Below, piece by piece: positions 19,994 through 39,750 of a stretch of 64,000 nt of DNA. The notes under the pieces were generated by a model. It was given only the letters and a program-made list of their open reading frames with translations, had not been told where the DNA came from and did no database searches. Location of the stretch: the IMG/VR virus record IMGVR_UViG_3300044568_004391, positions 32,001 through 96,000 of that record; one strand, given 5' to 3'. This DNA is from a virus. How positions within the stretch are numbered: position 1 is the first letter of the stretch; every line of letters begins with the position of its first letter. The translations under genes and the position numbers were made by a program.

Positions 19994-20305
19994 TCACATG
20001 AAGTGTCTTTTAATCTTCTCGTGACTATATTCCATAATGACCTTCCTTACTTTGGGGAGGTCATTTTCATTTAGTTTCATTTTCTTGTTCAGATAATCAA
20101 TCATGTGAACTGTATCTGAATCCACGATTGTGTATTCGGATAAACCGATAGGTTTACTGGTGAAAGACTTCTTAGCTCTATCAAACCAAACCATAGAAAG
20201 GTTGGGAGATTCCAACTCTTCAAAAAACACACAATATCGTTGATCCTGTCTTTCAACGAAAACATTAAACTTTTCATCCAAGATTTTTATAATAGACTTC
20301 TTCAT
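19994..20305 (-). CDS. Hypothetical protein
   Basis: 103 aa; MKKSIIKILDE leader-like start. Confidence 0.6.
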   Translation of the reverse strand: MKKSIIKILDEKFNVFVERQDQRYCVFFEELESPNLSMVWFDRAKKSFTSKPIGLSEYTIVDSDTVHMIDYLNKKMKLNENDLPKVRKVIMEYSHEKIKRHFM

Positions 20306-20340
20306 ATTTATAAAATATAGTTTATTTAATATTTATCAAC

Positions 20341-20790
20341 ATGAAAATTTTAGATATCTTAAAAAGATTGATCAAGGAATATATTCATCCTGATGCTTCA
20401 GTTATATATGAAACAAAACTTAAAGGTAAGGATTTTATATTTTACGATAGTCCACACTTATATGAGATCAGAAAAGATTTTGGAACGGTTAGATTAAAAG
20501 ATATGTCATTGTTAATAGATATATGTAAGAGTACCGTGTTCAAGCTTTATACTCAGTACTATAGGATGAACAAACACTATAGAGAGATTGACGAGTACGA
20601 CCCCAAAAAAATCAGATTTGGAGTTGTAAAGAAGTTTGAAAATAAGGACGTGATGGTGATCATGCAGATTGAGAAGTTTGATAGAAAGGAGGGATTTATC
20701 ATCGTGGTGATAACAATCTTTGATGAGGAGGGTATAACACCAAGATCTTTGGAAAGAAATTATAATACAAGATTTTTCTTGGAAGTTTAA
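20341..20790 (+). CDS. Leader-bearing hypothetical protein (possible BECR/RelE-like fold)
   Basis: MKILDILKRLIKE leader; SPHLYEIR...IIVVITIF; TATTTAT 4 nt upstream. Confidence 0.55.
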   Translation: MKILDILKRLIKEYIHPDASVIYETKLKGKDFIFYDSPHLYEIRKDFGTVRLKDMSLLIDICKSTVFKLYTQYYRMNKHYREIDEYDPKKIRFGVVKKFENKDVMVIMQIEKFDRKEGFIIVVITIFDEEGITPRSLERNYNTRFFLEV

Positions 20791-20809
20791 GAAAAACGCC
20801 TTATATTTG
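20779..20809 (+). promoter_or_regulatory. Sigma-A promoter of small RNA copy 1
   Basis: TTG-N20-TATATTTG; duplicated exactly at 20959-20989. Confidence 0.75.
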
Positions 20810-20813
20810 TACT

Positions 20814-20949
20814 GTTAACGATGGTTAACTGGTCGTCGGGAGTTTAAATCATTCGTACCGAGACGAGATTATAAAGGATGATTAAAGGTTGATGTACCTC
20901 GATCGGGATGATCAAAAACATTAAAGGACCTTCGGGTCCTTTTTTTTTT
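20814..20949 (+). ncRNA. Unidentified structured small RNA, copy 1
   Basis: No meaningful ORF between promoter and GGACC-TTCG-GGTCC-T9 terminator; hairpins GTTAAC/GTTAAC, TCGTC-GG/CCG-A-GACGA, AGGT/ACCT. Confidence 0.7.
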
Positions 20950-20993
20950 ATGTGTTTTTTGGAAGTTTAAGAAAAACGCCTTATATTTGTACT

Positions 20994-21181
20994 GTTAACG
21001 ATGGTTGACTGGTCGCCAGGAGTCTGATTGTCTGTACTGGGACGAGATTATAAAAGATGATCATCGGATATTGAGTTAATCCGTACAATCTCAACGTCAA
21101 GAACCTGGCGATTAGGTTCAGGGGTGATGTACCTCAATCCGATCGGATGGAACACATCGAAGGACCTTCGGGTCCTTTTTT
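20994..21181 (+). ncRNA. Unidentified structured small RNA, copy 2 (with inserted hairpins)
   Basis: Same promoter, scaffold and terminator as copy 1; compensatory CCAG/CTGG stem; extra TTGAG/CTCAA and GAACCT/AGGTTC hairpins inside an ATCGGAT/ATCCGAT stem. Confidence 0.7.
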
Positions 21182-21238
21182 CGTTTTTGGAAATTTAAAA
21201 ACTTCGCTTTATATTTGTCCTATAAATCCTTTTCACTC

Positions 21239-21358
21239 ATGACAAAAGCACAAGTTAAAATGATGATCGAAATGTCGGATCCTGATTTCGTTTACACGAT
21301 GTTGTTGGATCAGGAATTGGATGATCTTGCGGATTGGGTTGCGGACGAATATTTTTAA
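21239..21358 (+). CDS. Small acidic protein (39 aa, not in ORF track)
   Basis: MTKAQVKMMIEMSDPDFVYTMLLDQELDDLADWVADEYF, behind a third diverged promoter copy (TATATTTG 21210). Confidence 0.55.
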   Translation: MTKAQVKMMIEMSDPDFVYTMLLDQELDDLADWVADEYF

Positions 21359-21359
21359 A

Positions 21360-21803
21360 ATGGAATGGACACACTATTTTCTCCAAATTGCGGAGACAGT
21401 TAAACTAAAATCAAAAGACCAACGCACACAGATAGGTGCGGTCATAGTTGGCGAGGATAATGAGATTGTATCCACGGGGTACAACTCATTTCCTCGTGGT
21501 ATTAATGATGATATTCAAGAACGACAAGAAAGACCCGAAAAATATTATTGGGTGGTTCATGCGGAAATGAATGCAATATTGAATGCTGCTCGTATTGGTA
21601 TGTCCACAAAAGATTGTACGATGTATCTTACTTGTGGTGTGCCGTGTTCAGATTGTTGCAGGGGAATAATTAACTCAGGAATCAAAAGAATATTTGTGAA
21701 GAGGGAAGACACCACCCGTAACCGTGAACATTGGGATGCTCACGCTGCTCGATCACGTGTGATGTTTGAAGAGAGTGGTGTCCAAGTTTGTTTTTACGAG
21801 TGA
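21360..21803 (+). CDS. dCMP deaminase
   Basis: STGYN, HAEMNA and PCSDC zinc motifs; start MEWTHYF. Confidence 0.9.
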   Translation: MEWTHYFLQIAETVKLKSKDQRTQIGAVIVGEDNEIVSTGYNSFPRGINDDIQERQERPEKYYWVVHAEMNAILNAARIGMSTKDCTMYLTCGVPCSDCCRGIINSGIKRIFVKREDTTRNREHWDAHAARSRVMFEESGVQVCFYE

Positions 21804-21822
21804 AATTTACTATTTTCTCAGC

Positions 21823-22413
21823 ATGAAAAATTACACAGATAAGGATGTCATCAGCATTCTTGAAAACAACTTTATATCACAACTGTCGAATACAGAATAT
21901 GGTAAAATGATTCAATGTGCTGCGGAAGAATACATCGAACATAGAGTCAATCAAATTGCGGGGGAACCTATTTTGGTAAATGTAACTGACTCCAAAGAGT
22001 TGATGGAAGAATTTCACTATCAAAACAACGGACCAGGTTTCGACAGACTAACCAAGAACGGTAAAAAAATCCAAATCAAATTCAGACAAGTCGATGGTAA
22101 TACACCATACACCAGACAAACTCACTTCTCAAATACAAGGAGACATAGCAAGAAAAACAAAGGGAATGGTGATCAAACCGGTATGATTGCTTATCGTAAT
22201 GATGAGTTTGATTTTGTTTTGGTCATTCTGTGTCATATCAAAGATGGGGTTAGAAAAAACTACAAAGAATGGTCATTTTCTCTAATACCTGTTGATGAAT
22301 TGGTAGATGTTAACAATAGTCCATTTTTACTTGCGAGTATACCTTCAGATAGACTTTACAAATACAAATGTGATGATATTTATATGTTAACAACAAAACT
22401 CAAGGAACTATGA
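21823..22413 (+). CDS. Putative Type II restriction endonuclease (PD-(D/E)xK)
   Basis: GFD...IQIK motif; translationally coupled to the MTase. Confidence 0.5.
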   Translation: MKNYTDKDVISILENNFISQLSNTEYGKMIQCAAEEYIEHRVNQIAGEPILVNVTDSKELMEEFHYQNNGPGFDRLTKNGKKIQIKFRQVDGNTPYTRQTHFSNTRRHSKKNKGNGDQTGMIAYRNDEFDFVLVILCHIKDGVRKNYKEWSFSLIPVDELVDVNNSPFLLASIPSDRLYKYKCDDIYMLTTKLKEL

Positions 22414-23336
22414 ACCAATATATCGTAGGTGATAATATAAACGAATTAATTCGATTAAGGGAGAATAGTTCTATTGTGGATTTGATCTACTTCGATCCAC
22501 CATATAACACAGGAAGAGATTTCGACGATTTCAATGATAAGTACGAAACATATCAATCCTATCGAGAAGATTTTATCAAACCGAGGTTGGAGATTATGAT
22601 TGATTTACTTTCAGATAATGGTGTTATAGTTGTACATGTCGAACCATCGGTTTCTCACCATATCAGAATAGCATTGGATGACGTTTTCGGTGAGAAAAAC
22701 TTTGTCAACGAAATTGTATGGAAAAGCGGTGGGAACAAGAAGTCCACAAAGAAGTTGATGAGATTTCATGACACCATCATCGTTTATTCCAAGAAATCCA
22801 AATACACCTATAATCCTCAATACCTTCCTTATGACGAGGATTACAGAAAAACTAATACCATCAAAAAGGATGATAAAGGTGAATACACGACATCGGCCGC
22901 TCACAACTCACAACCTAATGTAGTCAAAAGACCAAATTTAAGGTATGAGTGGAACGGACACCACAAACAATGGTGGTGGTCTGAAGAAAGAATGAGAGAA
23001 TTACACTCACAGGATAGATTGGAATACAATGAAAACGGAGTGCCAAGGGTAAAAAAATACTTGAAAGAAATGGACGGTATTCCCGTAAGAGATTTGTGGC
23101 TGGATATAAATCAAATACAGGGTAATGAAAAGCTTGATTATGCAACTCAGAAACCAGTCAAGTTACTCGAAAGGATTGTAAAGATGTTTTCAAACGAAGG
23201 TGATTTGGTCTTGGATCCATTTGCAGGTTCAGGAACCACAGGAAGAGCTTGTATTAATACCAAAAGGAATTACATCATGTTGGACATAAATCCGAAGGGT
23301 AGGGAGATATTCGAAGAATCTATAAAATCAAATTAG
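22410..23336 (+). CDS. Beta-class N6-adenine/N4-cytosine DNA methyltransferase
   Basis: DPPY, TQKP and LDPFAGSGTT. Confidence 0.92.
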   Translation: MNQYIVGDNINELIRLRENSSIVDLIYFDPPYNTGRDFDDFNDKYETYQSYREDFIKPRLEIMIDLLSDNGVIVVHVEPSVSHHIRIALDDVFGEKNFVNEIVWKSGGNKKSTKKLMRFHDTIIVYSKKSKYTYNPQYLPYDEDYRKTNTIKKDDKGEYTTSAAHNSQPNVVKRPNLRYEWNGHHKQWWWSEERMRELHSQDRLEYNENGVPRVKKYLKEMDGIPVRDLWLDINQIQGNEKLDYATQKPVKLLERIVKMFSNEGDLVLDPFAGSGTTGRACINTKRNYIMLDINPKGREIFEESIKSN

Positions 23337-38815: not shown

Positions 38816-38957
38816 TTGACAAACCGAAAAAAAGTTCATACATTTGTAATCCAAACCGAACGAGGTTAGGGTTTTTTCACGAAAACGATATATTTATATA
38901 TCACAGAAAAAAATAGGGGATTTCACTTGACAAAACGAAAATTAAGTTGTAGTTTTG
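38816..38957 (+). promoter_or_regulatory. Three stacked promoters upstream of the large ncRNA
   Basis: TTG(38816)-N20-TACATTTG(38839); TATTTAT(38891); TTG(38927)-N20-TAGTTTTG(38950). Confidence 0.65.
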
Positions 38958-38962
38958 TCCTC

Positions 38963-39750
38963 TGAAATTAGAGTTCTTTGATTAAAACCTTTTATTGATG
39001 GTTTAAACGGTTGGCGGCTTAGCGTCGTTAGATAACCCCGGCGACGGGAATAAAGGGTCGGAATTCAGATCTAGCAATCTGATTATATGACCGCAGAACA
39101 TTAGGTGTTCTGACAACTAAGCAAATTACCTACGATAGAAACCCTAAGGGCAACTGCTAAGGGGGTTCTATTATCCTGAGTCCGTGGAATATCAGGGTTG
39201 AGGTGGTGACACCAATAGGAAAAGGTAAAGATGACGGTTCGAAACAACCTGCCAGTTGTTTGAGGGCTGAGCATCAGTCTGAGGGGCATCCGATGGAAAA
39301 TTAATCCGACGTTGTCCTGAAAGGCCGTGAGTGGGCAGACTCACAGAGAGTAGTGTGGTATTCCGTGTTCAAAAGATATGGAGTCACACCGACAGCGCTA
39401 CTTTCCATTTCCACATTTGCTAATTTAATACTTAAATTAAGCAAAAGTCTGTCGGCGTTGTAAACGAAAGGTGTCTAAAACTTCAGACCGTGAGGTCAAT
39501 GAAGTCTCAGATAAGACCGCAAGTCTTTCTGAGTTGATTGTGAAAGTTCTAGTAGGTCGGCCAACCTTTAGTGAGTGAAAACTCAATAGAAACGAGTATT
39601 AGTCGAGTGGTTTACAACGATACGAGTGGTTACCGATAGTAACCGACACTGATCTGATATCACGGGCAATCGTGATGGACAAGTTGGCAACCTGTCGTGG
39701 GGTACACCAACGAAAGACAGATCACTCAAGCGTGTAGTCTCAGCGCAAAC
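38963..39750 (+). ncRNA. Large (~790 nt) highly structured ncRNA, GOLLD-like candidate
   Basis: GC-richer, no credible ORF, many hairpins with GNRA-type loops, long-range pairs (39456-65/39610-19; 39346-55/39396-405), pseudoknot 39389-95/39449-55, own promoters and terminator. The GOLLD label rests on size and phage context only. Confidence 0.75.

Follow-up and report, generated by a model that had tools for sequence, protein, structure and literature searches.

Two small RNA genes, lying side by side in the genome of a large freshwater phage, represent an RNA family not described before, the members of which are built around a hairpin and a pseudoknot. The window that we analysed (the whole stretch of 64,000 nucleotides) is part of a 151,984-base virus record from IMG/VR, rated as approximately half complete, and hence comes from a large phage; the record holds exactly two copies of the unit, the best explanation for which is a pair of paralogous genes from a new family of small structured phage RNAs, ~100–270 nt in length. 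A first-pass annotation of the same DNA had proposed a phage sRNA family under structural selection and this stands, with covariation seen in 18 distinct homologues, none of them in Rfam.

Along the plus strand, the locus is laid out as follows:

20341..20790 (+): gene for a 149-aa protein ('family A'), the candidate protein partner; an ORF without a family match, with the RNA downstream of it in relatives
20779..20809 (+): unit 1 promoter, TTG-N20-TATATTTG, of Bacteroidota type by its sequence pattern
20811..20950 (+): unit 1 RNA, ~139 nt with a predicted 5' end, from alignment and covariation
20923..20950 (+): unit 1 intrinsic terminator, AAAGGACC-TTCG-GGTCCTTT and then a T run, the hairpin at 20923-20942
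20959..20989 (+): unit 2 promoter, identical to that of unit 1 by alignment and pattern
20991..21184 (+): unit 2 RNA, ~191 nt, from alignment and covariation
21159..21184 (+): unit 2 intrinsic terminator, a terminator-like hairpin (21159-21178) with a T run
21187..21217 (+): third, diverged copy of the unit promoter, by pattern; predicted to drive the small ORF and the dCMP deaminase gene
21239..21358 (+): 39-aa acidic ORF, followed by the dCMP deaminase gene (21321-21803); the downstream neighbour in the window lineage only

Pairwise alignment confirms, as first annotated, that the two units open with the same 48 bases (20779-20826 = 20959-21006). Both also carry the blocks GACGAGATTATAAA.GATGAT and TGATGTACCTC and a GGACC-TTCG-GGTCC terminator, and the GGACCTTCGGGTCC hairpin is found at these two units only in the whole 152-kb record. 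The 31-nt promoter block occurs in the window at 20779 and 20959 only (0 expected, none in shuffles) and fits the Bacteroidota form TTG-N19-21-TAnnTTTG, which also precedes other genes of the window, the GOLLD RNA among them; its TAnnTTTG element stands 4 nt from the first helix of the RNA (P1, below), a spacing kept in diverged relatives. We infer from these patterns that the units are transcribed from their own promoters. The sole ORF inside them has 8 codons, with an ATG at 20821 and 21001, the two versions (MVNWSSGV, 20821-20847, +; MVDWSPGV, 21001-21027, +) spanning from the P1 loop to the loop of the second helix, P2; because the ATG is missing in related loci L192 and L194 these are probably not translated, in line with the earlier view that neither unit holds a credible ORF.

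Three copies of one promoter flank both units (20779-21217), such that the RNA units form cassettes between promoter copies, an arrangement of repeats that would allow a cassette to be gained or lost by recombination. Copy number at this one slot varies between close relatives: unit 1 stands alone in L125 and unit 2 alone in L030, L122, L159 and L198, and L199 and L200 share the window's arrangement of both. The more distant L194, L195, L196, L197 and L320 each carry two much-diverged units.

In agreement with the first-pass assessment, the units are neither tRNA nor tmRNA (ARAGORN reports 0 such genes in the window) and have no match to an Rfam family even at E<=10; the matches of positions 20000-22000 to Rfam 15 are terminator-like or chance only (E 0.55-9.6, far below threshold). 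Over the whole window GOLLD alone passes, and lies elsewhere than the units: this full-length RNA (RF02032) is located at 39346-39746 (+), scoring 263.9 bits (threshold 150; E 4.7e-74), with two Bacteroidota-type promoters upstream of it at 38816 and 38927.

Relatives were found by exact-pattern scans and by look-ups via flanking proteins, all scans of collections being of the exact-pattern kind. Together these gave ~20 related loci, all metagenomic, with 18 distinct module sequences and, where named, mostly from JGI, ENA and Logan assemblies; judged from these sequences, the family seems to be restricted to a single clade of large phages. Scanning metagenomes with a 21-nt core returned 66 matches, four of them true members and ~55 unrelated gut-bacterial coding sequence. 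The same core, GACGAGATTATAAA.GATGAT, is found within conserved coding sequence (L123-L188; several of the assemblies are labelled human gut metagenome), where its match is a chance identity, and the exact core pattern gave a single chance match, in GC-rich coding sequence, across 185,579 species genomes. An initial 14-mer scan of IMG/VR produced mostly chance matches, and BLASTN against GenBank phages terminator-like fragments only. The terminator hairpin is itself common: none of the 119 loci examined from a scan with this pattern had a module at E<=0.01, and relaxing the cutoff to E<=1 added L309 only (19.4 bits, E 0.056).

The conserved core of each unit is formed from the following helices:

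20814-20819/20824-20829 (+): P1, unit 1
20832-20834 and 20836-20839 with 20858-20864 (+): P2, unit 1
20847-20854 with 20876-20883 (+): pseudoknot, unit 1
20994-20999/21004-21009 (+): P1, unit 2
21012-21014 and 21016-21019 with 21037-21043 (+): P2, unit 2
21025-21033 with 21055-21063 (+): pseudoknot, unit 2

P1 is a 5' hairpin of 6 bp (GTTAAC-GATG-GTT(A/G)AC in the window units), whilst P2 is a 7-bp stem, its 3 + 4 bp interrupted on the 5' strand by a single bulged base that varies in identity (register GUC-N-YCRG / CYGR-GAC). The 5' hairpin, compensated stem, shared blocks and terminators described at first pass are all present in the sequence, including the two compensatory pairs in P2 between the window units; the GA bulge then placed on the 3' strand of this stem is not, being replaced by the one-base bulge on the opposite strand. 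An H-type pseudoknot is completed by 6-9 bases of the P2 loop, which pair with a block located 11-17 nt downstream of P2.

In a model-based structure alignment of 23 modules (18 distinct), the positions of P1 and P2 pair in 99.6% of cases across the distinct sequences, compared to 18-42% when partners are slid by 1-3 columns, with both sides changed in 6 of the 13 pairs. Adding six pseudoknot pairs gives an overall pairing of 96.6%, a value taken from the first model alignment, in which one lineage is misaligned by three columns. When the pseudoknot is read in register starting at the loop's 3' end, 6-9 contiguous pairs are seen in 17 of the 18 distinct modules; the sole module with a weak pseudoknot, of 5 pairs, is that of L329, the most diverged member. 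The two strands co-vary, with compensatory changes at several positions: AAUCAUUC:GGAUGAUU in unit 1 and UGAUUGUCU:AGAUGAUCA in unit 2 of the window; AACCAUUC:GGGUGGUU and AACCGUUC:GAACGGUU in L192; CAACCAUU:AAUGGUUG in L197; CCACCGU:AUGGUGG in L194 unit B; UCACCGU:AUGGUGA in L327; with GAUUGUCU:AGAUGAUC as a further compensated example. Shuffle tests of the pseudoknot helix in single sequences are weak when taken alone (p 0.007-0.13), so that the case for it is carried by compensatory changes and by the shared register; single-sequence folding z-scores are likewise modest (-1.3 and -2.5), the predicted folds being without the pseudoknot. A local hairpin proposed by RNAalifold from close copies (GAUUAU/AUGAUY), which would use the same 3' strand, is not kept in module B of L192, leaving the pseudoknot as the conserved fold.

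This pairing overturns the earlier description of the loop core as variable and single-stranded, and with it the suggestion of a scaffold for a guide or decoy. Loop sequences do differ between the units whilst their flanks are fixed, as might be expected of a guide or antisense RNA; the loop core, however, is the 5' strand of the pseudoknot, pairing with the GATGAT block and co-varying with this downstream partner in 17 of the 18 distinct modules, and the 152-kb record contains no convincing target for the loop, its best complement being a single AT-rich 12-mer. The guide-loop reading therefore fails, and we regard it as highly improbable. Still harder to credit is a functionless duplication of promoter and terminator: the identical promoter and terminator blocks would fit, as would a copy number that varies among close relatives, but the covariation contradicts it, with compensatory changes preserving three helices among lineages that share just 32-52% identity in their flanking proteins.

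Unpaired bases around these helices are near-invariant as well: CUGG precedes P2, (G)GAG follows its 5' strand, G-N-A leads into its 3' strand and GAG comes next to the end of the latter, with GGAG at the P2/loop junction in 16 of the 18 distinct modules. Beyond the core, the 3' domains and the terminator sequence are optional in the family, units range down to ~100 nt, and modules, each of 74-83 nt, vary in number between one and two. L330, L326 and L329 have the core plus unrelated terminators only (~100 nt in all), L327 has the core, a 3' domain like that of L194B and a terminator sequence of its own, and L192 has one promoter followed by two tandem modules within a single transcript—differing from each other at many paired positions—and then a long 3' domain and terminator. 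In the window, the 3' domains contain:

20884-20922 (+): short 3' domain, unit 1
21064-21158 (+): long 3' domain, unit 2
CGGAU 21065-21069 with AUCCG 21079-21083, across UUGAG 21071-21075 / CUCAA 21090-21094: candidate second pseudoknot, unit 2
21101-21106/21114-21119 (+): hairpin, unit 2
GAUGU 21126-21130 / ACAUC 21154-21158 (+): helix, unit 2

The two extra hairpins previously reported for the second copy (TTGAG/CTCAA and GAACCT/AGGTTC) are both found, in a 56-nt insert. The long domain of unit 2 probably holds further knotted helices with some covariation, the RAUGU/ACAUY helix showing G:C, G:U and A:U in different copies.

At its upstream side, the RNA overlaps the end of the family A gene, the stop codon of which falls inside the unit 1 promoter (20779-20809); our reading of the sequences of L330, L326, L327 and L329 places the promoter over the gene end in the same way. 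As there is no terminator between this gene and the RNA, the first on the plus strand being at 20923, its mRNA must run into the RNA. The gene is preceded by an AT-rich stretch (20306-20340; TATTTATAAAATATAG) that is without a TAnnTTTG element, and so may use a promoter class other than that of the RNA.

TBLASTN with the 149-aa protein against GenBank phages gave no match. A HMMER search reached four more lineages (32-46% identity), in each of which the module lies directly after the protein gene, at 84.7, 67.4, 56.2 and 42.7 bits; with L192 (52%) this makes five out of five lineages, reached via the protein alone, that carry the module directly downstream (diverged family A relatives P0002, P0009, P0010, P0011 and P0012, 32-52% identity). 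What follows the RNA in family A loci is a gene for dCMP deaminase, thymidylate synthase or a T5orf172 protein, or else an unknown gene; the downstream gene differs in L326, L329 and L330, and the contig of L327 ends at this point. The RNA thus follows the upstream gene and not the downstream dCMP deaminase. Further along the window (21766-23336 region, +), a 215-aa ORF faintly matched by a methyl-directed restriction enzyme in PADLOC (E 0.0087) directly precedes an N6/N4 DNA methyltransferase gene (PF01555, E 4e-47).

Two readings in which the RNA acts in cis can be set against this arrangement. A riboswitch-like ligand sensor, controlling read-through into downstream nucleotide-metabolism genes, would account for a compact pseudoknot with conserved loops ahead of a terminator, for the tandem modules of L192 and for the dCMP deaminase or thymidylate synthase gene found downstream in several loci. 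However, in all three of the dCMP-deaminase lineages read, the terminator is followed by a separate promoter before the downstream ORF is reached, other loci have a T5orf172 protein or unknown gene in this position, no Rfam riboswitch matches even at E<=10, and no antiterminator pairing is evident by inspection; the intervening promoter, the differing downstream genes and the Rfam result together make a riboswitch very unlikely. We see somewhat more in a 3'-UTR element—acting to stabilise the upstream mRNA against 3' exonucleases, as a terminator module or as a site of autoregulation—that has no role as a free RNA, given the linkage to the upstream gene and the lack of a terminator separating this from unit 1. 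Nonetheless this too is unlikely: each unit has its own promoter, kept at a fixed 4 nt from P1 in diverged relatives too; second units and second modules are remote from the coding sequence; and the conserved unpaired bases suggest specific recognition as opposed to mere stability.

The linkage to family A has its own exception. In L122, L159, L194, L195 and L320 the upstream slot is occupied by a 171-172-aa protein, family B, which has only a 14-residue N-terminal motif (MKLxxxLKxLVxEY) in common with family A; profile comparison of the two is not significant (hhalign probability 4.8%). The slot (20341-20790 in the window, family A, 149-153 aa; 6147-6662 in L122 and 2047-2565 in L194, family B) looks like a site of allelic replacement between conserved flanks, and in L198 holds a truncated family B copy of 132 aa. 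Since a near-identical unit-2 RNA is found behind either protein, the RNA is not specific to family A, unless families A and B are remote homologues; unit 2 of the window is, moreover, separated from the protein gene by unit 1. The linkage could simply reflect a shared transcription unit. The upstream gene, nominated as partner in the first-pass annotation, therefore keeps its support from the five diverged relatives with the RNA directly downstream and a differing next gene, and loses some to the unrelated-looking 171-aa gene present in its place in some phages.

It is here that a trans-acting decoy or sponge for a host factor (an RNA-binding protein, defence nuclease or small molecule) has to be weighed; such an RNA would act independently of the upstream protein, being linked to it only through sharing its gene's 3' end and terminator. 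The same RNA behind two different upstream proteins speaks for a decoy, as do host-type promoters set amid early-gene features (methyltransferases, nucleotide metabolism genes) and a module that is repeated and keeps its unpaired bases invariant, as titrating RNAs do. Against it, module and family A gene occur together in all five diverged lineages whilst the downstream genes differ, and a search of the 185,579 species genomes, by exact core pattern only, found no host RNA like the module. On balance we hold the decoy to be possible, if doubtful.

By sequence, family A has no match in Pfam, PHROG, PADLOC or NCBIfam, nor does it match any RNase family. An AlphaFold (AF2) model computed with six sequences is confident (pLDDT 82, pTM 0.78), and Foldseek with this model against the PDB gave nothing at E<=0.001. 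RelE, HigB, YoeB, YafQ, ParE, BrnT, CdiA-CT and T4 RegB account for some 20 of the top 50 structure rows, at Z 3.4-4.7, which is the noise range for the exhaustive structure aligner used; colicin-type RNases are also present in this range, and no ToxN, AbiQ, CptN or TenpN chain is among the top structure rows listed. T4 RegB (2hx6) aligns over 105 residues with an rmsd of 4.4 and a Z of 4.1, again within the noise range, and the leads from a protein atlas are similarly weak (PBECR2 at 0.86; ParE, TM 0.41/0.55). Through BFVD the fold is connected with uncharacterised phage proteins, among them a structural relative at Foldseek E 9e-5 and TM 0.52 in Tenacibaculum phage PTm1 (A0A5S9BZ39; AP019524.1, a 225-kb Bacteroidota phage). 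In the PTm1 genome neither the RNA model nor the family A profile had a match among the few candidates, if any, that passed a first-look filter, a negative of little weight. The residues invariant in the family alignment (E13, H39, R44, R51, Y73, K90 and R92) would suit an RNase. The RNase-like fold initially suspected for 20341-20790 is accordingly retained as a lead, at about even odds for an RNase of RelE/RegB type; the structural matches that point to it are weak (Z 3.4-4.7).

A number of known systems bear comparison. Type III antitoxins are pseudoknotted RNAs that inhibit an adjacent endoribonuclease, encoded in loci comprising a single promoter, the RNA as short near-identical tandem repeats, a terminator and the toxin gene (PMC5086642). 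Like ToxI, CptI, TenpI and antiQ, the phage RNA is a small, non-coding and reiterable pseudoknot with an intrinsic terminator, adjoining a small gene for an endoribonuclease (here a candidate one). In contrast to these systems, the protein gene comes first, the RNA has a promoter of its own in place of one operon promoter, the modules are of 74-83 nt and mutually diverged, with the window units being separate genes, and family A shows no ToxN, AbiQ, CptN or TenpN signature in Pfam, PADLOC or NCBIfam, its weak fold matches pointing to RelE/BECR and not to MazF/Kid. With gene order, promoter layout, repeat type and apparent toxin fold all differing, the phage RNA family is not a member of the type III families. 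Phage-borne mimics of ToxI are known.

T4 RegB shares with family A its size (149-153 aa) and its nature as a small early phage protein, and we know of no dedicated structured partner RNA described for it. It differs in having no sequence similarity to family A, and in its host, E. coli, as opposed to the Bacteroidota-type promoters found here. RegB cuts within GGAG (PMC1702504), a sequence that the phage RNA presents at a fixed structural position; its conservation is notable in this light, as a lead only.

DapZ and MicL of enterobacteria are type I 3'-UTR-derived sRNAs, with an internal promoter. As far as can be read from sequence, the phage units resemble such RNAs in that their promoter sits where the upstream coding sequence ends and the mRNA uses the same terminator; these sRNAs, however, pair through a seed with the help of the chaperone Hfq, whereas the phage RNA is without a free variable seed. 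To our knowledge, Bacteroidota are generally held to lack Hfq. Finally, the preQ1, SAM-II and guanidine-III aptamers are likewise compact H-type pseudoknots with conserved loop bases, occasionally in tandem, and possess an A/U-rich strand that might run alongside stem 1; the phage RNA departs from them in having no Rfam match, no consistent regulated gene and a promoter before the downstream ORF.

Taking these comparisons together with the gene linkage, the reading we prefer, at a probability of roughly 0.4, is that of a protein-binding pseudoknot RNA that acts as partner to the upstream gene's product, much as a type III antitoxin would. The RNA would be made early, from host-type promoters, and its pseudoknot would bind the upstream product—a candidate RelE/RegB-like endoribonuclease—and then restrain or direct it, following the logic of a type III antitoxin or of an RNase autoregulator. 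The more specific proposal, of a RelE/RegB-like endoribonuclease with the pseudoknot RNA as its dedicated inhibitor or specificity partner, is rather doubtful. If true, the phage RNase–RNA pair would be a new class, either a type III-like toxin–antitoxin or an RNA-controlled host-shutoff module, with a different toxin fold, reversed gene order and a larger, non-repetitive pseudoknot.

Few structured phage RNAs have a known role, and almost none have been described for the phages of Bacteroidota. The family offers a small, well-defined core backed by covariation and a natural series of architectures, differing in having one module or two and in the presence of 3' domains; just one candidate protein partner is encoded next to the RNA, making a clear experiment possible. 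Should there be no such pair, what we describe is still a compact new pseudoknot motif, suited to structural study. Should the protein prove to be an RNase regulated by the RNA, the control of nucleases by RNA would reach beyond the three known type III families, and into the genomes of phages.
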